Of a stretch of 64,000 nucleotides of DNA, positions 19,710 through 38,816 are shown piece after piece. Source of the DNA: a candidate division WOR-3 bacterium. GTDB taxonomy: Bacteria > Hydrothermota > Hydrothermia > JBDRYB01. Location: positions 23,998 through 87,997 of the forward strand of contig JBDRYB010000001.1 of assembly GCA_039803205.1 (NCBI GenBank), written 5' to 3'. Every line of letters begins with the position of its first letter. Positions within the stretch are counted from its first letter, which is position 1. A program made the translations under genes and the position numbers. The notes under the pieces were generated by a model, which saw nothing but the letters and a program-made list of their open reading frames with translations, did not search any database and was not told the origin of the DNA.

Positions 19710-20097
19710 GGAGAGGCTGAGAAGGGCCGCGGCCAAGGAGAAGACCGAGGAACCAAAGCTAAAGGTGCCATCCAAGGTCGCTGAGGAAAGGGCCGCGATG
19801 GGCGGCGTGAAGCTCAGACGGCCAACGAGGTTATCCCAGGAACCCGTCGTGAAGACCGAGACGCCCTTTGGGCCCCTGAATTGGTGGCTCCTCGCCGGAG
19901 GCGTGATCCTGGCCGCTGTCGGGTTCGTGTTCCTGTATCTCGGTGATACCATAATCTCAACGACCCTGCTGGTCATGGGCTACTGCGTTGTTATACCCGT
20001 AGCGCTCTTAATCAGTCCCAATATACTCAAGAGGAAGCCGAAGGAAGAAGGCGAGACCGCCCAAGGGCCTGAGACACAAGAGGGGGACAAGGGCTAG
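19675..20097 (+). CDS. small membrane protein with lysine-rich N-terminus
   Basis: AAGGAAG RBS before ATG 19675; two predicted TM helices; overlaps the previous gene end across an A-rich tract. Confidence 0.4.
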   Translation: MAKKKKKKESLEERLRRAAAKEKTEEPKLKVPSKVAEERAAMGGVKLRRPTRLSQEPVVKTETPFGPLNWWLLAGGVILAAVGFVFLYLGDTIISTTLLVMGYCVVIPVALLISPNILKRKPKEEGETAQGPETQEGDKG

Positions 20098-20196
20098 CGC
20101 GAACCGGACGAGGCTGTTTGGGGTTTCTGGGTATTAACTATGGCCTAATCAACTGATGGCCTGGCTCTTGAAAGAGTGGCCGCGGGACTCGTAAAG

Positions 20197-21006
20197 TCAT
20201 TTCCTTATAAGCTTATTCAACAATTCTTCGCCTCTGGTAGTTCCAACCTCACGAAATACATCCAAAACAGCTTCGTAAGAACCTTCACCACCAATAAAAT
20301 CCCAGAATTCTTTGCCAATTAATATCTCATTATTCAGATCAAATAAAGAGAGGGTAAATCCCCACTTATAATTCACCTTTTCTTCGCCCCAGGGATTATA
20401 GGGGAAGCAAAATTTATAAACTCCATTCGGACCAATACCTGCTATAAAATAAAGGAACTTTTCTTTAGTTTGTGAACAAACATCCTTATTTGGCTCCGGA
20501 CTTTTTATCTCAAAAAAGTATTTTTTATCATTTTTATCCTCCAAATAAAGATCAGCTCTCAACAGAATCTCTTGACCTTCACTAGAAGAAGGCTCCAACC
20601 GAGGCAAGGGGGGTGGCGGATAGGGTCTCTCCTTCTTCCTTTTTACATTTTCTATAAAGGTAGCAATTGATTCCTTTATCCTATTATTTGTAGGAATTGC
20701 AAGGGTATAGTTTCGTTCCACCTTAACCCAAAAAGTATTATCGCTAGCTATAAGTTGTGCAATGTACTCAAATACCCCTTGCCCCAATGAAGTGTCAAAC
20801 GATCTGAAAAAGCTATGAAGTCTAAGAAAGTGGGGAGGAAGCAAAGCGGTGTGGAATGGCTTATATTTTCCTTTTTTAGGATCTAACCATACCTGTTTTA
20901 TAACAGCATTTTTCACAACATCCGGATCATACTTATTGACCAGACCTTGCAAAAATCCTTCTAGATATCCGATTATATTCTTTCGCGTAGTATCTTTTAG
21001 TTTCAT
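20197..21006 (-). CDS. putative type II restriction endonuclease
   Basis: 269-aa ORF directly downstream of and overlapping a DNA methyltransferase gene in a markedly AT-rich segment; assignment by context only. Confidence 0.4.
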   Translation of the reverse strand: MKLKDTTRKNIIGYLEGFLQGLVNKYDPDVVKNAVIKQVWLDPKKGKYKPFHTALLPPHFLRLHSFFRSFDTSLGQGVFEYIAQLIASDNTFWVKVERNYTLAIPTNNRIKESIATFIENVKRKKERPYPPPPLPRLEPSSSEGQEILLRADLYLEDKNDKKYFFEIKSPEPNKDVCSQTKEKFLYFIAGIGPNGVYKFCFPYNPWGEEKVNYKWGFTLSLFDLNNEILIGKEFWDFIGGEGSYEAVLDVFREVGTTRGEELLNKLIRK

Positions 21007-22373
21007 TCTTTGTATCCTTTCTGTAGAAATAAAACATATTCATATCTAAGTTTCGCAAACCCCCCCAGAATTGGCCTTCTCATAGCATAGACATCAGAAA
21101 AGCCTATTTCTGGAGCCCAGCTCTCTATCTTTTGACAAAAGTCGGTTCTTTTCCCGTCCACCACTACATCTCCCAATACTATGGCGGCCCATGCTCCTGG
21201 TTTCAGAACCCGGTGCATCTCTTCAACGCTTTTTCTAATGTCCTCCTCGTAGAACAATAATTTTTTATCTTTACCCCCCCTTAGACCCACCATTTGCTCT
21301 CTTAGCGGCGAGGTATCTATGCCCAAATAAGTAAGCAAGTGAAAGTCATTCTTCACATAGTCCAGGGCAATACTGTAAGGTGGGGAGGTTATTATTCCCG
21401 TTATGCTGTTGTCAGTGACCGGAAGGGCCATGGCCGAAGCAAGCTTTATCTCCGGTGCTTTAGGTTCCAGATTTAATTTCTTTAGAGTGAAATAGGTTCC
21501 CTTTATTGTCTGAAGGTATTCCGAAAGATTGATCAGGAAGAACTTTTCAAAAGACTTTTCTTTGGCTGTGCCCTTTAGATAAGTATAATCGGACAGGGCA
21601 TGTAGATATGCTAACAGCAGGAAATTCCTTATCTCAAAAGGTAGTTCTTTGATTTGAGAAGAGGGAAAACGAAATTCCCAGACATAATCAAGAATTTCTT
21701 TGGCATCAACCGGTTCGCTTTCGGGTAAGAATTTCTTGGTTTCAAGCTTTGCCGTCTTAAAGTATTCAAATATTCGTAACGGGGAACCTATCTGGTTTAT
21801 CGCGCTGTTCAGCTCATCATAGTTAATTCTCAGAGAATCTGTTTTTATTTGGGACACAATGCAAAGCGCAGGATTAATGTCTATCCCCAGTCCACCGGTT
21901 CTGAGGAGCGCTGTTTCCACAAGGGTGGTTCCTGATCCCAAAAACGGATCAAGGATGATATCCTCCTCGCCGGCGCCCATGAAGTTTATTATAGCCTTGA
22001 TCATCTGGCCGTGAAACTTGCCCTTGTAAGGGTAGAACCAGTGGGTCATGTATTGATTGCTATTTCCTATCTGACCCTTACCCCTTACTTTGGCTATTGA
22101 GGAGTGATAGCTGGGTTTCCCATCTACTATTTCAAAGTATGCTGACCTTTTCCGGAAGAGATCAAGGTCCTTCCCTAAGGTGGAGAACTCCATCCTTGCC
22201 AATTGAAGCTCATAAATCTGGCCAGCATCATCAAAGAGTTTGAAGCCGTTTCCGGGAAGGATGCCGCCAGTAGCCCAGGAAACAGGATCTATGGATTCTC
22301 CAAGAACACTCCGTAGAGAGACGGCATTCTCTTCTGTTTTTACTGGAAACAAGGCCTTTGCCTTCACCTTCAT
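21003..22373 (-). CDS. DNA methyltransferase (motif I DPFLGSGTT, motif IV TSPPY)
   Basis: Both MTase motifs present; start set at ATG 22373 preceded by GGAGG, just downstream of the purS stop. Confidence 0.8.
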   Translation of the reverse strand: MKVKAKALFPVKTEENAVSLRSVLGESIDPVSWATGGILPGNGFKLFDDAGQIYELQLARMEFSTLGKDLDLFRKRSAYFEIVDGKPSYHSSIAKVRGKGQIGNSNQYMTHWFYPYKGKFHGQMIKAIINFMGAGEEDIILDPFLGSGTTLVETALLRTGGLGIDINPALCIVSQIKTDSLRINYDELNSAINQIGSPLRIFEYFKTAKLETKKFLPESEPVDAKEILDYVWEFRFPSSQIKELPFEIRNFLLLAYLHALSDYTYLKGTAKEKSFEKFFLINLSEYLQTIKGTYFTLKKLNLEPKAPEIKLASAMALPVTDNSITGIITSPPYSIALDYVKNDFHLLTYLGIDTSPLREQMVGLRGGKDKKLLFYEEDIRKSVEEMHRVLKPGAWAAIVLGDVVVDGKRTDFCQKIESWAPEIGFSDVYAMRRPILGGFAKLRYEYVLFLQKGYKE

Positions 22374-22389
22374 ATTATACACCTCCCCT

Positions 22390-22641
22390 TCATTCCCTCT
22401 CCTCCATCTCATACCAGAACCTCTCTATTACCGGATTGGTGAGGAGTCTGCGGGACACATCCTCTATCTGAGCGCGCGCTGAGGCCTCGTCCGGAGCCTC
22501 AAGCGAAAACCGAACTATCTTTCCAACGCGCCCCTCTGAGACCGAAAGCCCAAGCCGCCTCATCGCGGCCTCAACAGCCATGCCCTGTGGATCTCTGAGA
22601 TCGTCGTGGGGCAGAATGAAGACATGAACCAGGTATCTCAT
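22390..22641 (-). CDS. purS: phosphoribosylformylglycinamidine synthase subunit PurS
   Basis: 83 aa with typical PurS sequence; adjacent to purC. Confidence 0.85.
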   Translation of the reverse strand: MRYLVHVFILPHDDLRDPQGMAVEAAMRRLGLSVSEGRVGKIVRFSLEAPDEASARAQIEDVSRRLLTNPVIERFWYEMEERE

Positions 22642-27694: not shown

Positions 27695-28651
27695 ATGAAG
27701 GTTGCTGTTGTCGGAGCGGCTGGCCTGGTTGGAAGGACCATGCTTCGCGTCCTTGAGAAGAGGGGCTTTCCGGTCTCGGAGCTGGCGGCTTATGACAAGC
27801 TATCGGGAGAAAGTCTGCTCTTCCGCGGCAATAAGCACCTGTGCATCAGGTTAACTCCAACATCCGTCAGGGGTTTTGACCTCGCGCTTTTTTCGGCAGG
27901 TGCGGATGTCTCCCTGAAATACGCGCCCCTGTTTGCCAAAAAGGGCGCGCTAGTGGTTGACAATTCCTCCGCCTGGCGCATGCATCCCAAGGTTCCACTT
28001 GTCGTCCCAGAGGTGAACCCAGAGGCGCTCATGGATATTCCAATGGGCATCGTGGCCAATCCAAATTGTTCAACGATCCAGATGGTCGTGGCTCTCAAGC
28101 CCCTGGTTCGCTTCGGCATAAAGGAGGTCTTCGTGGCGACATATCAGGCGGTCTCAGGGGCTGGAAAGGACGGGATTGACGCGCTCATATCGGAAGAGAA
28201 GGGCAAGAGGTCGTCAAATTCCCCTCACCTCGGCCCAATTCACAGGAATGTCTTGCCCGGAATAGGAAACTTTGAGGAGGGTTTCTACGAGGAGGAGACG
28301 AAGCTCATCCGTGAGACAAAGAAAATAATGGGCCTTGATGTTCCCGTTCATCCGACCGCGGTGAGGGTTCCTGTGATAGCTGGCCACTCCGAGGCCGTTG
28401 CGGTAAGGCTAAAGAAGAAGGTAAGCCTTGAGGAAATAAAAGCTTCTATGGGAGAGCAGGAGGGCCTCGTCCTCAGCGATGGTTTTGTCACCCCGAAGGA
28501 GGCCGAGGGCAAGGATGAGGTCTTTGTCTCCAGGCTCAGATTTTCGCCTGATGATCCGAGGGTTCTCCTGATGTGGGTTGTCTCAGATAACCTTCTGAAG
28601 GGAGCCGCTCTCAACGCGGTTCAAATAGCAGAGAGGGCCCTATTGCGGTGA
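27695..28651 (+). CDS. asd: aspartate-semialdehyde dehydrogenase
   Basis: MKVAVVGAAGLVGRTML Rossmann N-terminus and Asd core; start at internal ATG 27695. Confidence 0.9.
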   Translation: MKVAVVGAAGLVGRTMLRVLEKRGFPVSELAAYDKLSGESLLFRGNKHLCIRLTPTSVRGFDLALFSAGADVSLKYAPLFAKKGALVVDNSSAWRMHPKVPLVVPEVNPEALMDIPMGIVANPNCSTIQMVVALKPLVRFGIKEVFVATYQAVSGAGKDGIDALISEEKGKRSSNSPHLGPIHRNVLPGIGNFEEGFYEEETKLIRETKKIMGLDVPVHPTAVRVPVIAGHSEAVAVRLKKKVSLEEIKASMGEQEGLVLSDGFVTPKEAEGKDEVFVSRLRFSPDDPRVLLMWVVSDNLLKGAALNAVQIAERALLR

Positions 28652-30277
28652 AAGAGGAGCGTCCCCGAACAGCCTCTTCCTCAGCCTGTTATAGTATTGC
28701 CTGTATTCGTCAATGTGGCGGTCATAGGGGAATTCGGGAAGGAGCTCTCCTTTCGCCAGCTCGCGGGCCCGGGCGAGGAGTTCCTCTTTCTCGGCGGGAT
28801 CCCGGGTCGCGTCAGCGAGCCTCATCAGGTTCTCAAGCTCGCCAAGGTCTGTCCAGACATCCTCAAGCTGGTAATAATCCCCCTTTTTGATGAGGAGATC
28901 AGGCCTACCTAAGTTCCGTCTGGCGACCACCATAGCTGTGTAGAGCAACTCCCTGGATCTTTCGTTGTATTTTCTTCTCGGCCATATCAGATAAAAAAGG
29001 TGATCGTAGGGCAATCTGTGTTTTGGTGAAAGGAGCAGATAGACGAATGCTCTGGCTGATTTCTTGTTCCGCCACTCGCTCAAATGAACCTCTCTTCGGT
29101 CGACAAATATCCTCATCTCACCGATCAAATGTGCCCTTATACCGGATTGTCTCCTCTGATCAACCCCATAGGTAAGAAGGGGATAAATTGCCTCAAGAAA
29201 CGGGCCTAAAATGGGATCACGACTCATAGCCCGGTAAGAAGGGGCAAGGGGAACCAAGAATCTCATGGCCTCATGGAAGACCGTACCGCCGTGCTTCCAT
29301 GCCAAAAACGCGGAGGAGAGACCTGTCACGAAAGCCTCTACTGGTTGATAAGCGTTAAGATAATCTCTGGCGGCCTTCAAAAGCTCATGAGGAAGGTCCG
29401 CTTTGTCCTCAGATAATAGGGCCTCTATCTCTCTTAGGGCCGCGAGCTCACCCAGTCCACCTTTTTTAGCAAAGTCCATGCACCTATCCACCATTTCCCT
29501 TGGAGGAGGCTCCAGACCAGCAAATCTAGCGATTTCAAGGGCTTTCGCACAAGGAAACGCTGAGTATGCTGAGCCTATTTCCAGATATCCCAGGGCTGAC
29601 TTCGTGTATAACTTCACCGCTCCTCCTAGATCCCCTAGCATCCTGAGAGCAAAACCCTTGACCTCCAGCAAGGCAGAGAGATGGCGCTTATCCTTTTCCG
29701 TTTTGATCAAGGATCTGAGCATATCAAGAGCCCTTTCCGGCTTGCCAGTTATTATGCTCAGAAGGGCCAGCAGATACCTGGCTCTGGGACTCTTTGACGA
29801 GGTTAGCGTGGGAAGAACTCCTTTTATATCCATGTAAAGGGTGTCGTATTCGGCTCTGAAAAACTTCAGGGAAAGGAGGTTCACTTTGGCAAATGACCAC
29901 AACTCCCTATCCTCAGCGTGCTCAGCTATGTCCAGGGCCTTTAAATAACAGTTCTCAGCAACCTCCATCTCCCCTGTTTGTCTGTAAACTAGCCCAAGCA
30001 TGCCATATATCCTTCCGGTCATCTCCGGTTCGCCGCGAACACGAGCGAGAAGCCTTCTCCCCTTTTTGATGGCTTCTGGAGCACGGGAACCCAGAACTGC
30101 GGCGCAGAAGTCCAAGAACGCAAAACCCAAAGGGTCCTCAGATTTCAGCTTTTCGACATAATTAGCAAAGGCTCCGGGGGAGCCTGTCTTCAGGATCTCT
30201 AGCCCTCTTTCAACCCTTTCTAAGAGCTTCACCCCGATATGATAAAATTCAGAATGGAGCAAATTCAAGTCGCGCAA
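28640..30277 (-). CDS. transcriptional regulator: N-terminal TPR-like domain plus C-terminal SARP/OmpR-like winged helix and short BTAD-like tail
   Basis: C-terminal WRNKKSARAFVYLLLSPKHRLPYDHLFYLIWP resembles winged-helix DNA-binding domains; paralog of 33844..35442; start is TTG, uncertain. Confidence 0.6.
   Translation of the reverse strand: MRDLNLLHSEFYHIGVKLLERVERGLEILKTGSPGAFANYVEKLKSEDPLGFAFLDFCAAVLGSRAPEAIKKGRRLLARVRGEPEMTGRIYGMLGLVYRQTGEMEVAENCYLKALDIAEHAEDRELWSFAKVNLLSLKFFRAEYDTLYMDIKGVLPTLTSSKSPRARYLLALLSIITGKPERALDMLRSLIKTEKDKRHLSALLEVKGFALRMLGDLGGAVKLYTKSALGYLEIGSAYSAFPCAKALEIARFAGLEPPPREMVDRCMDFAKKGGLGELAALREIEALLSEDKADLPHELLKAARDYLNAYQPVEAFVTGLSSAFLAWKHGGTVFHEAMRFLVPLAPSYRAMSRDPILGPFLEAIYPLLTYGVDQRRQSGIRAHLIGEMRIFVDRREVHLSEWRNKKSARAFVYLLLSPKHRLPYDHLFYLIWPRRKYNERSRELLYTAMVVARRNLGRPDLLIKKGDYYQLEDVWTDLGELENLMRLADATRDPAEKEELLARARELAKGELLPEFPYDRHIDEYRQYYNRLRKRLFGDAPLSPQ
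28665..28873. repeat. about 209-bp near-identical duplicated segment (copy A), 3' end of the regulator gene
   Basis: Direct comparison with 33860..34068 shows a constant offset of 5195 and about 6 mismatches. Confidence 0.9.
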
Positions 30278-30295
30278 GATGATAATATCATTTTG

Positions 30296-30327
30296 TTTCG
30301 GAACTTTTTCGGAGGATCGCTTATAAT
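30296..30327 (+). promoter_or_regulatory. direct repeats TTTCGGA at 11-bp spacing followed by a TATAAT -10 box
   Basis: TTTCGGA at 30296-30302 and 30307-30313, TATAAT at 30322-30327; AAAGGAG RBS and ATG 30356 downstream; divergent from the regulator gene. Confidence 0.5.
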
Positions 30328-30355
30328 ATGGGCATGTTAAAAAGGAGTGAGCATC

Positions 30356-31882
30356 ATGACAGAAGCATACACGCTAATAGGCCTTTTGGTGTCCCAGGTC
30401 TCTTTTGCTAGATCCTATGGAGGGCCTGATACTGAGAGCGTTCGTGGAATAGTCCAAACAACCGATGGAGGCTTCATTGTTGCGGGAGAGACAAAGAGCT
30501 TTGGGGCAGGGAGCTATGATTTTATGGCCATGAGGCTTCTGAGCACGGGGGATCCCTTCTGGGTAAAGACTCTCGGAGGGACCGGTGACGACAGGGCCTT
30601 CTCAGTAGCTCTGGCTATTGACGGTGGATGCGTCATCGTAGGAGAAACAAAGAGCTATGGCGTAGGGGACTATGATGTTTTGGTTATGAAGCTTGGCCCT
30701 GCTGGGGGATTCCGGTGGGCAAAAACCTATGGAGGGTTATTGCGAGAAAGAGGCACCTGCATCAAGCCAACCAGCGATACGGGATACATCCTCGCGGGAT
30801 GGACGGTTAGCTCAGGCCAGGGGTCCGCGGATCTCCTCGTGATGAAAATGGATTCAGCGGGCAATCGCGTCTGGACCAGGACATTTGGAGGTGACACCTC
30901 TGATTACGCGCATCAAGTGATACAGACCCAGGATGGAGGCTTCTTGGTTGCGGGAACGAGTAGGAGCTTTGGGGCAGGCGACTTTGATTTTCTCGTGCTC
31001 AAGCTCAACAGCTCTGGCACGCTGAGCTGGGCCAGAGCAATTGGTGGCCCGGGCATAGAAGACGCCAGGATCCTGAGCCAGACTACGGATAATGGCTACA
31101 TAGTCGGTGGGTGGACGAACAGCTTTGGCAGTGGAGACTACGATGTTCTCCTTGTGAAGTTGAATTCATCCGGAGGTTTTCAGTGGGCAAAAACCTATGG
31201 GGGTGCCAGCCTTGATTGGGGGACATCCGGCATCCTCCTCCCGGACGGGGGTTTCCTCGTTGTAGGAGTCACTTTGACTTACGATCCCGAAGGCGATCTA
31301 TTTCTTCTCAGGCTGGACCCGGCAGGGAATCCTGATTGGCTTAAGGTTCTCAAGGAGGAGGGAGATGGGGTAAGTGGCGCGACTACTGTGATACAAACTG
31401 GAGATGGTGGTTTCGCGGTTGGAGGTTGGAAGGGTGACTCGTGGGATTTTCTGGTCATAAAGACCGACCAAGACGGAAACTATGACGAAGACTCCAATTG
31501 CATGAAGCCCGACATCCTTACAAGCCTGACCATTATGCCCAATCTTGAAACTCTGACGCTCGGGGCAAGCTGGGTTCCTCTAGTATCCAACCCAAACCCA
31601 TCCCAGAATACGCCCTCCTTGACGATGACAAACGTGACCTGTGAACCTGTTTATGAGGAAGTTGGGGAATCTCTGGTTGAGCCGAATGACATAGTCTGCT
31701 ATCCGATTCCAAGGGCCATTGCGTTTATTTCTTCCTGTGCCGCGGAGATAAGTATCTACTCATCTGACGGGTGCGTGGCCTATTCGGGCACTCTAGAGAA
31801 GGGCAAAAATATGATACCCATTGACCGAGGCATTTACTTTTGGCAGGCAGGAGCTTATAAAGGAAAAGCCGTTGTGAGGTAA
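30356..31882 (+). CDS. secreted beta-propeller repeat protein (SBBP-like repeats) with C-terminal sorting-domain-like tail
   Basis: Multiple repeats of about 50 aa (T.DGGF.VAG.T.SFG.G..D.L..KL...G...W.KTYGG); signal-like N-terminus; C-terminal beta-sandwich-like tail resembling T9SS-type CTDs. Confidence 0.6.
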   Translation: MTEAYTLIGLLVSQVSFARSYGGPDTESVRGIVQTTDGGFIVAGETKSFGAGSYDFMAMRLLSTGDPFWVKTLGGTGDDRAFSVALAIDGGCVIVGETKSYGVGDYDVLVMKLGPAGGFRWAKTYGGLLRERGTCIKPTSDTGYILAGWTVSSGQGSADLLVMKMDSAGNRVWTRTFGGDTSDYAHQVIQTQDGGFLVAGTSRSFGAGDFDFLVLKLNSSGTLSWARAIGGPGIEDARILSQTTDNGYIVGGWTNSFGSGDYDVLLVKLNSSGGFQWAKTYGGASLDWGTSGILLPDGGFLVVGVTLTYDPEGDLFLLRLDPAGNPDWLKVLKEEGDGVSGATTVIQTGDGGFAVGGWKGDSWDFLVIKTDQDGNYDEDSNCMKPDILTSLTIMPNLETLTLGASWVPLVSNPNPSQNTPSLTMTNVTCEPVYEEVGESLVEPNDIVCYPIPRAIAFISSCAAEISIYSSDGCVAYSGTLEKGKNMIPIDRGIYFWQAGAYKGKAVVR

Positions 31883-31900
31883 CCCACTTGTAGTCACTAG

Positions 31901-31948
31901 CCCCGGCCGGTAAAATCATTGCACCTCCCGTCCCGGCCGGGGGTTTTT
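31901..31948. terminator. hairpin terminator element, copy 1 (10-bp GC stem, 22-nt loop, T5)
   Basis: CCCCGGCCGG - taaaatcattgcacctcccgtc - CCGGCCGGGG g TTTTT between convergent genes. Confidence 0.65.
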
Positions 31949-31968
31949 ATTTCCCAGATGAGAAGCCC

Positions 31969-33804
31969 TTATTGCCTATCCCAACCCAAACCCCACATTC
32001 CCCTGGTCCAAGCCCTGCCGTTCCTGCAGGGGGTTCCTGCTGGATAGTTGTCCTTGCCTGATAGGTCAAGGAATATGCCAACGCCTCCAGCGTCCCGGGC
32101 CCTGTTCGCATCGCCGAGGCCTATGTCCTCCCTGGCGGAATATGTGTCATCCCCATCAGAATCCACGAAGATCCCAACGGAATTCGTCAAACCTATACCG
32201 AGGCCGCCGGAGACCTGGTAGTTGTCGTTGCCGCGCTTGTCAATTAGCCAGCCAACAGCGAGGTCGTGGCCCTCGCCCTGGGATGGGCCGTATCTTGAAT
32301 AATAGTGATCCGAGCCGGAGTAATCCCCGAGAAGTCCGACCGAGAGGTGGATTCCGGAGCCCTGCGCGTATTGCACAGCGGAATAGAAGTCGTCGCCAGA
32401 CAGATCGAGGAGAATGCCTGCCGAATACCAGTATGAACAGCCCTGCGCGTATACCTCGCCCTGATACAGGTCGTTGCCCTCGCGGTCCAAAAGAACTGAG
32501 ATCCCCCCAGAAGCGCGTGGTCTAATTCCGATTGAATAGCCTTGCGCGAACGCCCTGTAGTTGTGTTCAAGGAGGGGTTTGTGCAGGTATTCTCCTCCAG
32601 CGTAATAGACATCATCTCCCCCCACCTCGTCCAAGATAGCGCAGCCCTTGACCGATGAGAAGGCCTGAGCGCAAGAGAATGCCCTCATAACATCATCCCC
32701 TCCGCCCTCGTGCATGTAGGAGACCCCGAACATGGCCGCGGATTGTGCGAAAAAGCCGGAGTAATAGAGATCGTCTCCGGCCTTATCCGAGAGAAAACCC
32801 GCGCCGAAAAGCCCCATACCCATTGTGTAATGAGGGGCCCGATACAGGTCATCCCCTGAGAGGTCAACCAGGGCACCGTAGCCCATGAGGCCAGCGCCAA
32901 GGGAGACGAAATCTTCAGCCAGATAAGCGTCATTGCCGCAAAGATCAATCACGGCCGAGAGGGGCCTCCCCAGAAACCCAACCGATCCCCCAGGCCTCCC
33001 GTAGTAGGCGTCTGAGCCACCCTTGTCCAGTATAAGGTGATATAGGGCTGTGGTCTCGGCCGGATGAACATCATCCCCTTCTCCTTTGACCAAAACCCTC
33101 CACTGGCCAGCGGAATAGCTGCCCTCAGGAATTCCCTGTGAGAACATCGTGATCTCCTCTACCCCCATTGAGAACGCTAGGGCTCCGAGGGCTAGCTCAC
33201 GCCAATCAACCAGAGCCGCCAACTCCAGTATCCTTGAAGAGTCATCGCACCAGGCTGTGTCCACCGGAAACCCAAATTCCCTGAGCAGACAGCCCCGCAG
33301 AGTGTCCAGAAGGGTATCACCCTCGTCCGCCCAAAGGGAAAGGGAGTAGTAGAGGAGGGTATCAATCTGGGGCCTGCTCAGCCGCGAAAAGGCTTTTTGC
33401 CTGTGAGCATCAGCCTCGTCCCAGGAGGCTCTGAGGTATGCGAGGCCAGCTTCCCATCCCTTTTTGCCCGCCATGGCCTTTTCAAATCTCTTTCGCATCT
33501 CGTTCGTATCCTTGGGAGAGAGCCCGACATCGAGAAGGGAAAAGCCGAGGAACATGGTGGATGTCGGATTACCGGTTGATCTTGCTATTTCGGCCCTGCA
33601 GGAGTCAGCAAAATGAGGCACATCCATGGGCTTCGCCATCAATCTGTCAACCGTCTTGAGCCTGAATGAGTCGCGGTCGGCCCAGTCCTTGTTGTATGAG
33701 AGGTCCTCTGGGGCCAGATTAATGTAAGCTAGGGCCTGGATGATGGCACTTGTTTCGGCTGTATCAAGGAGAAACTGCGAGAGAAGCAAAAGCGTCATGT
33801 TCAA
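31969..33804 (-). CDS. secreted repeat protein (short G/D-rich repeats, possible beta-helix)
   Basis: Repeated pattern of about 22 aa (G.D.Y....Y.QG.G....G.L.D.SG.D.Y); hydrophobic N-terminus. Confidence 0.5.
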   Translation of the reverse strand: MNMTLLLLSQFLLDTAETSAIIQALAYINLAPEDLSYNKDWADRDSFRLKTVDRLMAKPMDVPHFADSCRAEIARSTGNPTSTMFLGFSLLDVGLSPKDTNEMRKRFEKAMAGKKGWEAGLAYLRASWDEADAHRQKAFSRLSRPQIDTLLYYSLSLWADEGDTLLDTLRGCLLREFGFPVDTAWCDDSSRILELAALVDWRELALGALAFSMGVEEITMFSQGIPEGSYSAGQWRVLVKGEGDDVHPAETTALYHLILDKGGSDAYYGRPGGSVGFLGRPLSAVIDLCGNDAYLAEDFVSLGAGLMGYGALVDLSGDDLYRAPHYTMGMGLFGAGFLSDKAGDDLYYSGFFAQSAAMFGVSYMHEGGGDDVMRAFSCAQAFSSVKGCAILDEVGGDDVYYAGGEYLHKPLLEHNYRAFAQGYSIGIRPRASGGISVLLDREGNDLYQGEVYAQGCSYWYSAGILLDLSGDDFYSAVQYAQGSGIHLSVGLLGDYSGSDHYYSRYGPSQGEGHDLAVGWLIDKRGNDNYQVSGGLGIGLTNSVGIFVDSDGDDTYSAREDIGLGDANRARDAGGVGIFLDLSGKDNYPAGTPCRNGRAWTRGMWGLGWDRQ

Positions 33805-33843
33805 AGGTTAAACCAGAAGGAGGCTGGAAGGCAAGGACGGCTT

Positions 33844-35442
33844 TCAGGTCTGATTATCTCCGAACAGCCTCTTCCTCAGCCTGTTATAGTATTGCCTGTA
33901 TTCGTCAATGTGGCTGTCATAGGGGAATTCGGGAAGGAGCTCGCCTTTCGCCAGCTCGCGGGCCCGGGCGAGGAGTTCCTCTTTCTCGGCGGGATCGCGG
34001 GTCGCGTCAGCGAGCCTCATGAGGTTCTCAATCTCTCCAAGGTCTGTCCAGACATCCTCAAGCTGGTAGAAGTCGCCTCGTTTGGTGAGCAATTGTGGTT
34101 TGCCCAGATTCCTGCGGATAGTGTAAATAGCAGTATAAAGCCACTTCCTCGTCCTGGCGTCGTATCTCCTCCTGGGCCACAGCAGATACGCAAGGTGATC
34201 CTGGGATATTCTGTGTTTAGGCGAGAGCAAGAGGTAGAGCAGAGCCATCAACGCCCTTGAGTTTCGCCACGCCCTAAGGGAAACCTCTTCCCCATCCACC
34301 TGGAGCATGAACTCACCAAGCAGGCTCGCCCTCACGCCCTGCACTGTCCTTTCGCCCTTCCCATATCTAAGCAGGGGTTCCACGCTGATCATGAATTCTC
34401 CTAGCAAAGGGTCGCGCCTGAACCCTGGGTGAAGAGGCAAGAGGGGCGCGAGTAACTTGAGGATCTTCGGGAAAACCGGGTGGTCGTCTTGCCATGCAAA
34501 AAGGGCTGCTGTGAGGCCTGTAAGGATGACCTCTATGTTCTGGTTGACCCTATAGTATCCGAGTGCGGCGTCAAAAAGGAGCTCGGTGGATCTTTTGGGG
34601 TCCTCACACAGGAGTGCTTCGATCTCCTGGGCCCCTGCCTTCTCTCCTGACGAACCCCTCCTGGCAAGTGCCAGACATCTCCTTACAAGCTTCTTGGGAG
34701 GAGGCTCCAGCCCAGCGAGTCGCGTGAGCTCAAGAGCCTTGGCACAAGGGAAGGTCGCGTAGGCAGAACCGAATTCAATGGCGATGTTCATGGACTCCAC
34801 ATATAGATCCCTCGCCTCCTGTAGTTTCCCCATCATCCTGCTGGCCAATCCCTTCATCTCTGTAGCACCCAAAAGGACTATACTGCCGCCCTCGCTGATG
34901 ATGGAATCCAAGAGTTTCAATGCCTTCTCTGGGTTTCCACGGATTATCTCAAGTGCGGCCACTAGGTACTTGGCACCCCCGGTGATCTCTGGACTCCTCA
35001 CCCGCGCGAGGAATCCCCTTGCTTCGTTGTAAAGCGGTTCGTATTCAGCTCTAAAGAATCTGTTGGTCAGAAGTCTCAATCTTGCAATGGAGGCCAGGGT
35101 CAGGTCTCCCGCCTGTCCGGCCATATCCTCTGCTCTAACAAAGTATCCATCGGCTGCATCCAGTTCTCCTATTAGTTCGTAAGCGGTGCCAAGGCAGTTG
35201 AAAAGAAAACTCGCAAGCCTGGGCTTGCCCGAAACTCTTGAAATGAGCCTGGTTCCTTTCCTTATGGCGCTAGAATTGTGATTGTAGACCGCCAGGCGAA
35301 CCTCCAGTAGTTCCGCGGCCAGAAGGTCTTCAAGCTTAAGGCAACGAATGTATCTCATTAAGTCATCCAACTGGCCTGACTTCATCATTGTTAGGCCGCG
35401 TTCAATCCTATCCAAAGTATCCACGTCTAGAGTATAAACCAA
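33844..35442 (-). CDS. transcriptional regulator paralog (TPR-like plus SARP/OmpR-like winged helix)
   Basis: Same architecture as 28640..30277; last 70 aa almost identical; start is TTG, uncertain. Confidence 0.6.
   Translation of the reverse strand: MVYTLDVDTLDRIERGLTMMKSGQLDDLMRYIRCLKLEDLLAAELLEVRLAVYNHNSSAIRKGTRLISRVSGKPRLASFLFNCLGTAYELIGELDAADGYFVRAEDMAGQAGDLTLASIARLRLLTNRFFRAEYEPLYNEARGFLARVRSPEITGGAKYLVAALEIIRGNPEKALKLLDSIISEGGSIVLLGATEMKGLASRMMGKLQEARDLYVESMNIAIEFGSAYATFPCAKALELTRLAGLEPPPKKLVRRCLALARRGSSGEKAGAQEIEALLCEDPKRSTELLFDAALGYYRVNQNIEVILTGLTAALFAWQDDHPVFPKILKLLAPLLPLHPGFRRDPLLGEFMISVEPLLRYGKGERTVQGVRASLLGEFMLQVDGEEVSLRAWRNSRALMALLYLLLSPKHRISQDHLAYLLWPRRRYDARTRKWLYTAIYTIRRNLGKPQLLTKRGDFYQLEDVWTDLGEIENLMRLADATRDPAEKEELLARARELAKGELLPEFPYDSHIDEYRQYYNRLRKRLFGDNQT
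33860..34068. repeat. about 209-bp near-identical duplicated segment (copy B)
   Basis: Matches 28665..28873. Confidence 0.9.
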
Positions 35443-35479
35443 TTGGGGAATCCACTGCTATATGCGCATTTGTCCTAAC

Positions 35480-35514
35480 TTGCTAGAGTTTTGCTAGAAA
35501 ACCCTACTTATAAT
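35480..35514 (+). promoter_or_regulatory. direct repeats TTGCTAGA at 11-bp spacing followed by a TATAAT -10 box
   Basis: TTGCTAGA at 35480-35487 and 35491-35498, TATAAT at 35509-35514, then GGAGG RBS and ATG 35551. Confidence 0.5.
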
Positions 35515-35550
35515 TTAGGGCCTTATGAAAAAGAGACACGGAGGTGTCAG

Positions 35551-37155
35551 ATGATAGGGATGATAGGAATCTTTATCGGTGCAACCACGGTCAACTGGCC
35601 CTGCTGGGGCGGAGACCCGGAGCGCCAGGGATTGCAGACCACTCCAGGAGCGTTCATAAGCGCTCCTTCAACAAAGTGGAAAGTCCAGACCTACCAACTC
35701 GTCAGGTGGGAATTCTCAGCGATAGCCGATGTTGACGGCGACGGCCAGATGGAGGTCCTCGTAGGATGCTACAACGGATACCCCGGCTTCTTTTGCATCA
35801 ATGGCTCCACGGGCACAGTTGAGTGGTCGGTTAACACATACCTAAGCGGAGTGCTTGCGGGTCCGGCCGTAGCTGATGTGGACAACGATGGCCAGAATGA
35901 GGTGATCTTCGCTAGCAGTGGTTCTGGTGCGGGAGACGATACGGTCTATTGTTACAGCGGAATGGGCTCTCGGAAGTGGGCCTTTTGTAATCCTTCTTCT
36001 GGGAGATACTGGTCCTCGCCGGCCATCGTTGATCTAGATGGAGACGGCAATATGGAGGTGTTAATAGGCAATTCTGACGGGGGGACAGACACTCTGAGCA
36101 GAAGAAGCCTCTATTGCCTGAATGGCTCTAATGGCACCCAGAAGTGGTCATACATTTCAGGCAACTCGGTGGACTGTGCATCCCCATCTGCGGCTGATGT
36201 TGATGGCGATGGCAAGCTAGAAGTGCTCTTCGTGAACTGGGCTAATAGGCTCTTCTGCATCAGCGATACCGTGGTGGCCGGCAACGACACATGCAGGGTG
36301 GAGTGGACATACCCATTCGGTGCTAGCGGTGGGATACAGTGCACCCCGGTTCTTCTCGATCTTGATGGCGACGGTAAGATGGAGATAGTTACTGCCAACG
36401 CGAATTTTAACTCTAATAACCTCTACTGCTTGAACACAGCCACCATCTCAGGCAACGATACAGCGGTTGTCAAGTGGACCTTCTCTGCTGGAAGATATAT
36501 ATACTCCTCTCTATCCGCCGCAGACGCTGACGGAAATGGTATCATAGATGTTTTCGTTGGTAGTTGGGACTCCCTATTATACTGCCTGGACGGAGCAACT
36601 GGCGCCAAGAAGTGGCAATTCGGAAAGGTGCCGGAGATACTCTATACACCTATATCAGTGATGGACGCGGACGGCGCTCATCCCAGCGGCGACCCTGGGC
36701 TTGAGGTTCTTCTTACAGCCAAGGACACCCTATACTGTGTGAACGCGGAGGATGGCTCTCTGCTTTGGAAAGCGAGGGTGGCGCCCCGTGTCAACACACC
36801 GTTCTCAGGGGACATAGACGGAGATGGGGCTTCTGAGATAATAGTCGGTGCAGACAGCGCGTTGTACGCGCTTGATACAGCAAGTCCGGTTTACGAGGGC
36901 ATAGGTGACAATAACAACAACGGAGACCTCGTCCTGTTCCGGTTCACAAACAACCGCTTTTATCTTTATCTGCCAGAAGAGGATGGGATCTCAATCGCTC
37001 TTTACGACGCTGGAGGGCGATTCGTTAAAAGTATCTTTGAAGGCCATCTGAGCTCTGGTAGCCACAACTTTGAGCTGAGTTCGGAGGCCAAGGGGGTCTA
37101 CATCGCTGTTCTCAGGCACAACGAGGGCATAAAGACCCTGAAGATAGCGAGGTAA
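35551..37155 (+). CDS. secreted FG-GAP/PQQ-like beta-propeller protein with C-terminal sorting-domain-like tail
   Basis: Repeated D(V/L)DGDG..E(V/I) and LYC(L/I)...G motifs; hydrophobic N-terminus; C-terminal tail similar to that of 37245..38753; start at ATG 35551 after GGAGG. Confidence 0.6.
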   Translation: MIGMIGIFIGATTVNWPCWGGDPERQGLQTTPGAFISAPSTKWKVQTYQLVRWEFSAIADVDGDGQMEVLVGCYNGYPGFFCINGSTGTVEWSVNTYLSGVLAGPAVADVDNDGQNEVIFASSGSGAGDDTVYCYSGMGSRKWAFCNPSSGRYWSSPAIVDLDGDGNMEVLIGNSDGGTDTLSRRSLYCLNGSNGTQKWSYISGNSVDCASPSAADVDGDGKLEVLFVNWANRLFCISDTVVAGNDTCRVEWTYPFGASGGIQCTPVLLDLDGDGKMEIVTANANFNSNNLYCLNTATISGNDTAVVKWTFSAGRYIYSSLSAADADGNGIIDVFVGSWDSLLYCLDGATGAKKWQFGKVPEILYTPISVMDADGAHPSGDPGLEVLLTAKDTLYCVNAEDGSLLWKARVAPRVNTPFSGDIDGDGASEIIVGADSALYALDTASPVYEGIGDNNNNGDLVLFRFTNNRFYLYLPEEDGISIALYDAGGRFVKSIFEGHLSSGSHNFELSSEAKGVYIAVLRHNEGIKTLKIAR

Positions 37156-37161
37156 AAACAT

Positions 37162-37224
37162 GACCGGCCGCGGAAACTTCGCACCCCCGGCACCTCCCGG
37201 ATGGACCGCGGCCGGTCCGGTTTT
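37162..37224 (+). terminator. hairpin terminator-like element (12-bp GC stem, 32-nt loop, T-rich tail)
   Basis: GACCGGCCGCGG ... CCGCGGCCGGTC perfect inverted repeat followed by cggTTTTg; loop contains gcacctcccgg as in the two other hairpin elements. Confidence 0.5.
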
Positions 37225-37244: not shown

Positions 37245-38753
37245 ATGTCTGACATGTATATCATAGGAATGCTGGCCTCCCAAATCCTTGGGACCTGGCC
37301 TATGTGGGGCTATAACCCAGCACACTGGGCTGTCCAACCGGTGCCTGGCACTCATACAACTGCTCCGGTTATGAAGTGGAGTATCTCAACTGGTGATCAG
37401 GTTCAGTGGCTCTTTTCTGCCACAGGTGATGTTGATCGTGATGGCAGAAATGAGGTTCTGGCTGGCTCTTTTTCTGGAACTTTTTACTGCTTGGACGGAA
37501 CCACCGGGGCAACCAAATGGAGCTTTAACGTCGAATCCGAATCACCGATAGAAACCTGCCCGGCTCTTGCGGACATGGCTGGAAATGGTTCAGTAGAGGT
37601 AGTCTTCGCCACTTGGGGCGGAGAAGTCTATTGCCTTGATGGGACGGACGGGAGCGTAAAATGGCAATACGTAACCACCTACTACGATCAATACCACCAC
37701 GGCCCGGTTGTCGTTGATTGCGATGCTGATGGTGATCTGGATGTTGTTATCGGAAACATATATGGAAGTCTATACTGCTTCGATGGTGAGACGGGAACGC
37801 TGATCTGGAACGCTAACATGAGCTCCACAGAAAACTCTTCTCCTGCCGCCGGTGATATAGATGGAGATGGCAAGATAGAGATAGTTATAGGAGGCTCATC
37901 GGGGACCTATTCTTTGAACGGTTCAAACGGAGCCTTGGAGTGGTTGGCTTCAACGGGTATCTGTGCTAATTCATCTCCAGGAATAGCTGACTGCGATGGA
38001 GATGGTCTCGCTGAGGTGATTATAGGTTCTGAGGATTATAATATCTACTGTCTTGATGGTCAAACCGGAGCCGAGAAGTGGCGTTATTCTACCGGAAACA
38101 GGGTTTGGTCTTCTCCTGTGATCCTTGATGCTGACGGAGACGGGCTTCTTGAGATAATAATAGGGAGCTTTGACGGCTACGCTTACTGTCTGAGCGGGGA
38201 ATCCGGAACCCTCCAGTGGAGAACGCAGGTCGGCGACATCCGCGTGGGCATCCCTGCTGGGGATGTGGACGGCGATAACAGATATGAGGTGATCATAGGG
38301 AATACTAGTGGATACACATGCCTCAACGGTGAGGACGGCTCTGTTCTTTGGAGATCAGCACCATCTAGCGGCGGTAGGTCCGTTTACCTCGCGGATGTTG
38401 ACATGGACGGGTGTGTTGAAATTGTGGGTGGGTCAACCGGTTATGATATATATGTGCTTGATGATCCCGGAAACTCGTCGGGTTGTATGAGTATGGGAAA
38501 GGATGAAGAGGGGTATGGCCCAGATTCTCCTGAATTCAAGCCCATGGGTAAAAGTTTATATCTTTTTCTCCCCGAGGATGAGCAGGTTTCTCTGAGCCTA
38601 TACGATGCCTCAGGTAAGCTCGTTCAAAAGGTATATGATGGGGTCCTGAGGCAGGGAAGTCACACCTTCAGCCCCAACATAAACGCTAAAGGTATCTACT
38701 TCGCGGTTATGAGGTATCAGAAAGGGATGAAAACCCTGAAGATTGTGCGATAA
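37245..38753 (+). CDS. secreted FG-GAP/PQQ-like beta-propeller protein with C-terminal sorting-domain-like tail
   Basis: Paralog of 35551..37155; repeated D.DGDG and YCLDG motifs; C-terminal ...KGMKTLKIVR tail. Confidence 0.6.
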   Translation: MSDMYIIGMLASQILGTWPMWGYNPAHWAVQPVPGTHTTAPVMKWSISTGDQVQWLFSATGDVDRDGRNEVLAGSFSGTFYCLDGTTGATKWSFNVESESPIETCPALADMAGNGSVEVVFATWGGEVYCLDGTDGSVKWQYVTTYYDQYHHGPVVVDCDADGDLDVVIGNIYGSLYCFDGETGTLIWNANMSSTENSSPAAGDIDGDGKIEIVIGGSSGTYSLNGSNGALEWLASTGICANSSPGIADCDGDGLAEVIIGSEDYNIYCLDGQTGAEKWRYSTGNRVWSSPVILDADGDGLLEIIIGSFDGYAYCLSGESGTLQWRTQVGDIRVGIPAGDVDGDNRYEVIIGNTSGYTCLNGEDGSVLWRSAPSSGGRSVYLADVDMDGCVEIVGGSTGYDIYVLDDPGNSSGCMSMGKDEEGYGPDSPEFKPMGKSLYLFLPEDEQVSLSLYDASGKLVQKVYDGVLRQGSHTFSPNINAKGIYFAVMRYQKGMKTLKIVR

Positions 38754-38769: not shown

Positions 38770-38816
38770 GCCCCGGCCGGTAAAATCATCGCACCTCCCG
38801 TTCCGGCCGGGGTTTT
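38770..38816. terminator. hairpin terminator element, copy 2 (near-identical to 31901..31948)
   Basis: CCCCGGCCGG - taaaatcatcgcacctcccgtt - CCGGCCGGGG TTTTT; 2 loop mismatches versus copy 1; between convergent genes. Confidence 0.65.

Follow-up and report, generated by a model that had tools for sequence, protein, structure and literature searches.

Candidate SARP-type activator boxes beside TPR regulator genes in a candidate division WOR-3 bacterium

Two divergent gene pairs and their repeat boxes

A 64-kb stretch of DNA from a candidate division WOR-3 bacterium (64,000 nucleotides of contig JBDRYB010000001.1, referred to below as the window) carries two divergent gene pairs. In each pair a gene for a regulator, composed of TPR repeats and a C-terminal domain of the SARP type, is transcribed away from a gene for a beta-propeller protein that is predicted to be secreted. 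Both intervals between regulator start codon and divergent gene (123-126 bp) contain a box of two direct repeats followed by the -10 hexamer TATAAT. The parts of the two loci are listed here, with open reading frame (ORF) limits and ribosome-binding sites (RBS).

28640..30232, minus strand: regulator 1 (TPR plus C-terminal SARP domain), GTG 30232 as the likely, leaderless start; mechanical ORF reaches TTG 30277
30296..30306, plus strand: promoter 1, distal 11-bp unit, core TTTCGGA at 30296-30302
30307..30317, plus strand: promoter 1, proximal 11-bp unit, core TTTCGGA at 30307-30313, 8 bp from core end to -10
30322..30327, plus strand: promoter 1, -10 hexamer TATAAT
30343-30347: RBS AGGAG downstream of promoter 1, start codon ATG at 30356
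30356..31882, plus strand: target gene 1, probable secreted beta-propeller (DUF5122 / delta-60 / SBBP repeats), terminator-like hairpin at 31925-31943
33844..35424, minus strand: regulator 2 (TPR plus C-terminal SARP domain, the latter encoded by 33844-34371), GTG start at 35424; mechanical ORF reaches TTG 35442
35480..35490, plus strand: promoter 2, distal 11-bp unit, core TTGCTAGA at 35480-35487
35491..35501, plus strand: promoter 2, proximal 11-bp unit, core TTGCTAGA at 35491-35498, 10 bp from exact-repeat end to -10
35509..35514, plus strand: promoter 2, -10 hexamer TATAAT
35540-35544: RBS GGAGG downstream of promoter 2, start codon ATG at 35551
35551..37155, plus strand: target gene 2, FG-GAP/PQQ-like beta-propeller with a type IX secretion system (T9SS) type A sorting domain (TIGR04183, 26.2 bits, cutoff 23)

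Direct reading of the sequence gives a repeat offset of exactly 11 bp in both promoters. It bears out a preliminary description of this DNA, which had reported two TTTCGGA heptamers 11 bp apart and then TATAAT upstream of 30356..31882, and two TTGCTAGA octamers in the same arrangement upstream of 35551..37155. Counted from a start site inferred to lie ~7 nt past TATAAT, the box spans about -38 to -17 in promoter 1 and -41 to -20 in promoter 2. A third copy another 11 bp upstream is absent at both window promoters, though one is present at a paralog locus, L075. No TTGACA-like -35 hexamer is found at 16-18 bp spacing in promoter 1 or promoter 2. On that ground, and because the repeat copies of promoter 2 stand 12 and 23 bp from the -10, the idea that a repeat copy itself acts as the -35 was rejected.

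The placement of the repeats, rather than their number, is the non-random part. Exact repeats of at least 7 nt are not enriched at offset 11 in the window (five, vs 2-10 at other offsets). TATAAT occurs 39 times on the two strands, and only the hexamers of promoters 1 and 2 have an offset-11 repeat of at least 7 nt ending 5-12 nt upstream; the same arrangement occurred at no site across 200 Markov shuffles. At 0 mismatches the window contains no further instance of either two-copy pattern, and the sole match at 2 mismatches (21509, inside an ORF, without a -10) is at chance level, so a larger local regulon is unsupported.

A promoter layout common to the regulator family

Sixty-nine homologues of the regulators were found, all from WOR-3 or metagenome contigs, including several paralogs in this genome. 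The named ones all come from metagenome-assembled genomes (MAGs) of candidate division WOR-3, and 2 of the 69 carry the NCBI label 'AfsR/SARP family'. The loci compared comprise 16 from two other WOR-3 MAGs, 58 from metagenomes and four paralog loci of this genome. Among the 48 loci with any exact direct repeat of at least 6 nt within 200 bp upstream of the regulator (offsets 5-25 tested), the longest repeat has an offset of exactly 11 in 38. For a non-circular comparison, 31 non-redundant promoters were aligned by RBS or start codon and best -10, ignoring the repeat. Aligned on the -10 they fall in a single register: at positions -16 to -10 from the first -10 base, the base is identical to that 11 bp upstream in 0.81-0.94 of the promoters. 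Copy-to-copy identity is at background at offsets 9, 10, 12 and 13, and also in the regulators' own promoters. In each 11-bp unit 7-8 bp form the conserved core, with 8-9 bp between its end and the -10. Orthologous groups keep the core while their flanks diverge; across the family the units follow a loose consensus, TTTnYTTYAG, with variable positions between.

The target promoters thus combine direct repeats 11 bp apart, the 3' one lying about 8 bp from the -10, with a weak or absent -35. Their match to TTGACA is only 1-3 of 6 positions, vs 4-5 of 6 in 39 of 48 regulator promoters, and unaided firing of target promoters that have no recognisable -35 is unlikely. The preliminary description had likened 11-bp direct repeats next to the -10 to the binding sites of SARP/OmpR-type winged-helix activators; the likeness agrees with the published layout of SARP boxes, whose direct repeats are spaced 11 or 22 bp and leave 8 bp from the 3' repeat to the -10 (PMC10936776). 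The arrangement in the window is a family-wide rule, seen again in about 50 related loci, and not a coincidence of two promoters, as the alignments support. As a separate observation, family target promoters usually have a -10 lengthened to TATAATAT, in many cases with AG(G/C)CC next; this conserved discriminator or start-site context concerns positions +6/+7 counted from the start of the -10.

The genes divergent from the regulators belong to a small number of families. In ~24 loci they encode DUF5122 / delta-60 / SBBP-type beta-propellers like the product of 30356..31882, and in ~12 loci FG-GAP/PQQ-like beta-propellers like those of 35551..37155 and 37245..38753. A third family is present in four loci, and other genes in a few.

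Fold of the C-terminal domain

Searches with sequences and profiles said little about the C-terminal domain. Pfam finds only TPR repeats in the N-terminal parts of the regulators; for the C-terminal part of single sequences it finds a sub-threshold Trans_reg_C in regulator 2 (E 0.005) and nothing in regulator 1. A PDB sequence search with the C-terminal domain gave no match, the full-length profile retrieved only TPR proteins from PDB, and the C-terminal profile gave one weak OmpR-type match, CarR (E 0.69). Because these searches were uninformative, a comparison of folds was required.

The C-terminal 175 residues were modelled with AlphaFold2 from an alignment of 26 sequences; the model has a predicted local distance difference test score (pLDDT) of 90.3 and consists of a beta-sheet, three helices, a wing and three more helices. 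When compared with PDB using Foldseek, its top six matches are the SARP domains of AfsR (8k60, 8hvr) and EmbR (2ff4, 2fez), with E-values from 2e-6 to 8e-5; the next match has an E-value of 0.08. These SARP domains are the only whole-domain matches, and their alignments span 157-160 of the 175 residues, including the three post-wing helices. The regulators thus contain an OmpR-type winged helix-turn-helix DNA-binding domain, and the assignment to winged-helix proteins of the SARP/OmpR type made in the preliminary description holds in the model. Trans_reg_C is matched by 13 of 26 family members. The BTAD-like part that follows is only ~60 aa (three helices), where the Pfam model has 146 positions, and among 26 members Pfam BTAD matches one (E 0.019); the family profile nevertheless reaches full BTAD proteins. 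In an exhaustive profile search, the tight family (E<=1e-30) comprised 28 representative clusters, and 4892 remoter relatives were found at E<=1e-3. Those relatives that were tested are Pfam-verified Trans_reg_C+BTAD proteins (profile E about 1e-12 to 1e-24), including small and large SARPs and some proteins of the order AAA-TPR-Trans_reg_C-BTAD.

The full-length model (pLDDT 93) places a TPR solenoid at residues 9-360, a short low-confidence linker at 363-366 and the SARP domain at about 368-530 of 532. The SARP domain therefore follows the solenoid and is not N-terminal. There is no N-terminal receiver domain with a phospho-acceptor Asp, the first 360 residues being TPR solenoid, and no NB-ARC/NOD ATPase: Pfam and NCBIfam give no AAA, NB-ARC or P-loop match, and the model is all-alpha TPR to residue 360. 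By fold, the full-length model matches generic TPR proteins, including Rap and NprR.

Mean pairwise identity in the family is lowest in the TPR part (0.40) and highest in the BTAD-like part (0.66). The loop and N-terminal half of alpha-3, at 0.44, are the most variable region of the DNA-binding domain. This pattern would fit proteins in which DNA and signal specificity vary and a polymerase interface stays constant.

Box diversity and the recognition helix

Six paralogs of this genome have six different box cores:

regulator 1: TTTCGGA
regulator 2: TTGCTAGA
P0004: CTCAGATATG, three copies
P0048: TGTTCTAG
P0009: GTCCGAG
P0034: GTGAGCT

The recognition helices alpha-3 of the two window regulators are encoded at:

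28910..28963, minus strand: regulator 1, ERSRELLYTAMVVARRNL
34105..34158, minus strand: regulator 2, ARTRKWLYTAIYTIRRNL

Loci of different genomes that have a common box core also have common variable residues in alpha-3:

core TCTTTCAG: alpha-3 N[KR]ELLYVA[IV]YNIRK
core GTGAGCT: alpha-3 [TS]RRWLYNL (includes P0034 of this genome)
core TTAAA-type: alpha-3 SRFLLYTA[IM]D
core CCGTTAGCT: alpha-3 N[KR]YGLYTAINTIR

The suggestion, made from the two window loci, that the differing repeats match differing recognition regions of the adjacent regulators is borne out in this comparison, in which the effect of the helix is not separable from common ancestry.

Several details of single loci may be added. 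At the P0004 locus (L075, 2425-2460, minus strand), three tandem 11-bp units, CCTCAGATATG, CCTCAGATATG and TCTCAGATATG, stand in place of two. Beside P0004 (L075, 1-916, plus strand) is the gene for a 617-aa TPR protein whose C-terminus has a BTAD recorded by Pfam, and whose translation shows a winged-helix-like segment there. This longer relative likewise has the TPR part ahead of the SARP part and possibly resembles the ancestor of the short-BTAD family. An Asp at one alpha-3 position (..A[IM]D[TM]IR) goes with a core ending in AA, rather than the family-typical AG, in 6 of 6 listed loci (L003, L013, L020, L030, L037, L047); this pairing is a candidate residue-base rule, inseparable from phylogeny here. 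In a subgroup of six regulators (alpha-3 SR[ED]GLY; L005, L006, L027, L028, L033, L046), GTCAGA-type 11-bp repeats lie upstream, clearly so in L027, L028 and L046. At L046 (1428-1500), the repeats and a GAAAAT hexamer aim antisense into the co-oriented feoA, with feoB upstream; repeats of this type could possibly reflect autoregulation, an antisense transcript or the remnant of a lost target gene.

Promoters and starts of the regulator genes

The regulators' own promoters face the minus strand:

30239..30268, minus strand: regulator 1 promoter, -35 TTGAAT (30268-30263), 18-nt spacer, -10 TATCAT (30244-30239), 6 nt to GTG
35431..35436, minus strand: regulator 2 -10 TATACT, 6 nt before GTG (leaderless layout)

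Nearly all of ~50 loci have the same organization, with a TTGAnn -35, a 17-18 nt spacer, a TAAAAT/TATAAT-type -10 and GTG or ATG 6-7 nt further, and the regulator mRNAs look leaderless from their sequence. With a start 6-7 nt after the -10 across loci, the longest-ORF TTG codons at 30277 and 35442, taken as starts in the preliminary description, are probably wrong; GTG 30232 and GTG 35424 are more likely. NCBI protein P0001 (526 aa) uses GTG 35424 as proposed for regulator 2, whose sequence matches without difference a hypothetical protein from a WOR-3 MAG (ABIM74_04225). Regulators 1 and 2 are 51% identical, with nearly identical final ~70 residues. The distal repeat is ~12 bp from the regulator -35, so a dimer on the box could affect the regulator promoter too.

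Proposed mechanism and its alternatives

The anatomy of the two promoters, the fold of the regulators, the conservation of the layout across the family and the diversity of the boxes are what the analysis shows. Regulator binding, the geometry of the dimer, an activating and not a repressing effect, and what the TPR part does are inferred. The reading that is favoured, with a probability of roughly three in four, is that two SARP domains of the adjacent regulator bind the paired repeats, replace the -35 and activate the divergent gene for a secreted beta-propeller.

In this mechanism, the regulators would be made as leaderless mRNAs from canonical -35/-10 promoters. The solenoid of roughly 350 TPR residues presumably senses a signal or partner and would gate the action of the SARP domain, which the short linker joins to the solenoid and which consists of an OmpR-type winged helix and a short BTAD-like three-helix bundle. 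Two SARP domains would lie side by side one helical turn apart, each inserting alpha-3 into a major groove. The box, at about -41 to -17 from the inferred start site, would substitute for the absent -35, and the invariant BTAD-like part would give sigma region 4 and the core of RNA polymerase another surface to dock on, a 'sigma adaptation' as in AfsR. In its box at -40 to -19, AfsR touches the initial 8 bp of every 11-bp repeat, and sigma R4 sits atop the SARP dimer (PMC10936776). The bound WOR-3 regulator would then switch on the divergent beta-propeller gene, and the differing alpha-3 residues and box sequences may insulate the paralogs from one another within one cell.

A number of observations weigh against this interpretation. 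No close orthologues of the two window loci are present in databases, which leaves their boxes without a phylogenetic footprint. The subgroup with the SR[ED]GLY helix is without a divergent gene or a clear -10, and within it 11-bp-spaced repeats are clear only in L027, L028 and L046; repeats that persist where the divergent gene is absent suggest that the box may also, or instead, serve the regulator's own promoter. No Pfam Trans_reg_C or BTAD match rises above threshold in either window regulator; with a BTAD-like part of only three helices, contact with RNA polymerase as in AfsR is putative. In partial Mantel tests, the correlation of box with helix, controlling for the rest of the protein, is r 0.15 (p 0.03), and that of box with the rest of the protein, controlling for helix, is r 0.18 (p 0.004). 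The covariation of helix and box is thus not separable from orthology and was not used as independent proof. At L049 and L055 the box is the same, yet the alpha-3 sequences are not (NRWGLYSAINTIRK vs SRFLLYTAIDVIRR). Both regulator ORFs are frame-shifted; the loci are 87% identical with the same frame-shift near residue 155 of the regulator, and the mismatch may reflect recombination in the DNA-binding domain, pseudogenes or a chimeric metagenome assembly. Frame changes occur in the L013 and L057 regulators as well.

Four other explanations were weighed. The box might be mainly for autoregulation: a dimer bound roughly 45-70 bp upstream of the leaderless start would turn the regulator promoter up or down, with control of the divergent gene a mere side effect. 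The short distance between distal repeat and regulator -35 (about 12 bp) speaks for it, as do the 11-bp repeats that lie upstream of the regulator promoter without a divergent gene in at least L027, L028 and L046. The register of the repeats, however, is fixed to the target -10 and not to the regulator -10, the regulator promoters already have a good -35 and -10 whereas the target promoters have no -35, and the orientation of the repeats and the 8-bp gap fit SARP activation geometry on the target side. Autoregulation as the main function is unlikely on this evidence; as a further role it is compatible with target activation, the two not being mutually exclusive. Repression is somewhat less probable still. 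The adjacent regulator would occlude the -35 region and spacer of the divergent gene, and the TPR domain would release it on a signal. The box does overlap the core promoter, at about -41 to -17, where many winged-helix proteins repress, but target promoters, having no recognisable -35, would be unlikely to fire on their own. The DNA-binding domain, moreover, has an activator-type BTAD extension, the most conserved part of the protein, and the position of the box fits AfsR activation complexes.

The favoured assignment of the boxes to the adjacent SARP-like regulators could also be mistaken if another factor, such as an OmpR/PhoB response regulator or a different paralog, binds the repeats and the adjacency is coincidental. 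Proteins of the OmpR/PhoB family do use direct repeats of ~10-11 bp. Against this, the layout is tied to this regulator family in ~45 loci of several genomes, the box changes together with the recognition-helix type of the adjacent regulator across genomes, and no other TATAAT in the window has such repeats; a different binder is very improbable. The view that the repeats are chance matches, or functionless duplications from replication slippage, draws on the roughly random rate of exact 7-mers at offset 11 in the window. It is effectively refuted by the absence of comparable sites from the 200 shuffles, the specificity of offset 11 with its fixed register to the -10 in 31 non-redundant promoters, and the conservation of the core within orthologous groups whose flanks diverge.

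Neighbouring genes

The second target gene is followed by another of its kind:

37245..38753, plus strand: second FG-GAP/PQQ-like T9SS cargo gene (TIGR04183, 28.2 bits, cutoff 23), terminator-like hairpin at 38796-38812

TIGR04183 was not detected in the product of 30356..31882 at E<=0.01. Between the two FG-GAP genes is a GC-rich hairpin, TGGACCGCGGCCGGTCCG (37202-37219, plus strand), with a weak T-tail; it ends 25 nt before the second ATG and may be a partial terminator or attenuator inside a presumed operon. Since 25 nt is too short for a promoter, 37245..38753 is probably co-transcribed with 35551..37155.

A gene for a 611-aa protein (31969-33804, minus strand) lies 39 bp downstream of regulator 2. 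The protein has GDD-rich repeats and no Pfam or NCBIfam match. In other WOR-3 genomes (L002, L011, L030, L040) its orthologues (84-87% identical) come immediately after regulator paralogs that differ from one another and in their boxes, which indicates a conserved gene adjoining a fast-changing or swapped regulator/target cassette. Elsewhere in the window, the GC content dips to 0.416 at 20001-22000 (vs about 0.54 elsewhere), where ORFs 20197..21006 (minus strand) and 21003..22412 (minus strand) lie; this DNA was possibly acquired.

Implications

The promoter grammar of SARPs, with 11-bp repeats, about 8 bp to the -10 and no -35, is seen here in an uncultured, deeply branching lineage. It is paired with a re-ordered protein (TPR first, minimal activation domain) that has multiplied into paralogs with private operators at exported surface-protein genes, which they are predicted to control. 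That private activator/operator pairs of many paralogs would govern exported beta-propellers in such a lineage is moderately surprising, and the idea lends itself to experiment.

A broader and tentative picture is that WOR-3 possesses many mutually insulated switches, each composed of a sensor-regulator, a private operator and a surface protein (at least 6 pairs here, at least 25 boxes overall), by which the cell might choose its T9SS-exported beta-propellers according to signal. The switches would use a rewired SARP scaffold in which the TPR sensor comes first, the recognition helix varies and the activation module, cut to a minimum of three helices, is invariant. If this picture is true, the family would be a natural library from which to read how winged helices recognise DNA, and orthogonal activator/promoter pairs could be drawn from it. 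If binding is confirmed, SARP 'sigma adaptation' would reach beyond actinobacteria, the smallest working activation module would be defined, and dozens of natural regulator/operator pairs on one scaffold would become available for deriving alpha-3 residue-base rules and for orthogonal gene control. The loci also afford an initial look at how WOR-3 bacteria regulate genes and choose surface proteins.

Comparison with known systems

SARP activators are the textbook regulators of antibiotic clusters. A 2024 review describes them as exclusive to actinobacteria (PMC10972967), and among the papers searched none relevant was found on regulators of the SARP kind in WOR-3 or in other non-actinobacterial hosts. 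Like the small SARPs (ActII-ORF4, DnrI, RedD), AfsR of Streptomyces and EmbR of Mycobacterium, the WOR-3 regulators have an OmpR-type winged helix, and after it comes a putative helical activation domain. Their sites share 11-bp direct repeats with a ~7-8 bp core, a 3' repeat about 8 bp from the -10, a poor -35 that the repeats overlap or replace, and two or three copies; three-repeat sites are known for DnrI and ActII-ORF4 (PMC10972967). As with these proteins, the regulators, predicted here to be locus-specific activators, are encoded beside their targets. The differences are that the WOR-3 SARP domain is C-terminal, after the TPR, and not N-terminal; that the BTAD is cut to three helices; that the host is the uncultured candidate division WOR-3 and not Actinobacteria; that the targets are single secreted/T9SS beta-propeller genes and not biosynthetic clusters; and that many paralogs occur per genome, each with its own box.

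The combination of SARP and TPR is shared with large SARP/STAND proteins (AfsR, PolY: SARP-NB-ARC-TPR), and the TPR of AfsR modulates SARP activity. Unlike AfsR and PolY, the WOR-3 regulators are without the NB-ARC/NOD ATPase and have the domain order reversed. The uncharacterised database proteins P0106 and P0115 have the order AAA-TPR-Trans_reg_C-BTAD, so a C-terminal SARP domain is not unique to the WOR-3 family. OmpR/PhoB response regulators (PhoB, KdpE, PmrA) differ in that the WOR-3 proteins have no receiver domain or sign of phosphorylation control and do have a BTAD-like extension, and the WOR-3 box is nearer the -10 than the pho boxes typical of PhoB. RRNPP proteins (Rap, NprR, PlcR) resemble the WOR-3 regulators in combining one TPR sensor, a solenoid of similar size, with one DNA-binding domain, and Rap and NprR give the best target-normalised TM-scores (TMt 0.55-0.64) in a Foldseek search with the full-length model. 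The DNA-binding domain of RRNPP proteins is an N-terminal helix-turn-helix of a different type, however, no peptide gene was identified at the WOR-3 loci, and the likeness is generic to TPR folds.

The WOR-3 family misses three customary features of SARPs: the N-terminal position of the domain, a full-length BTAD, and an actinobacterial host with control of a biosynthetic cluster. By modelled fold, by profile and by promoter grammar, it appears to work like a SARP.

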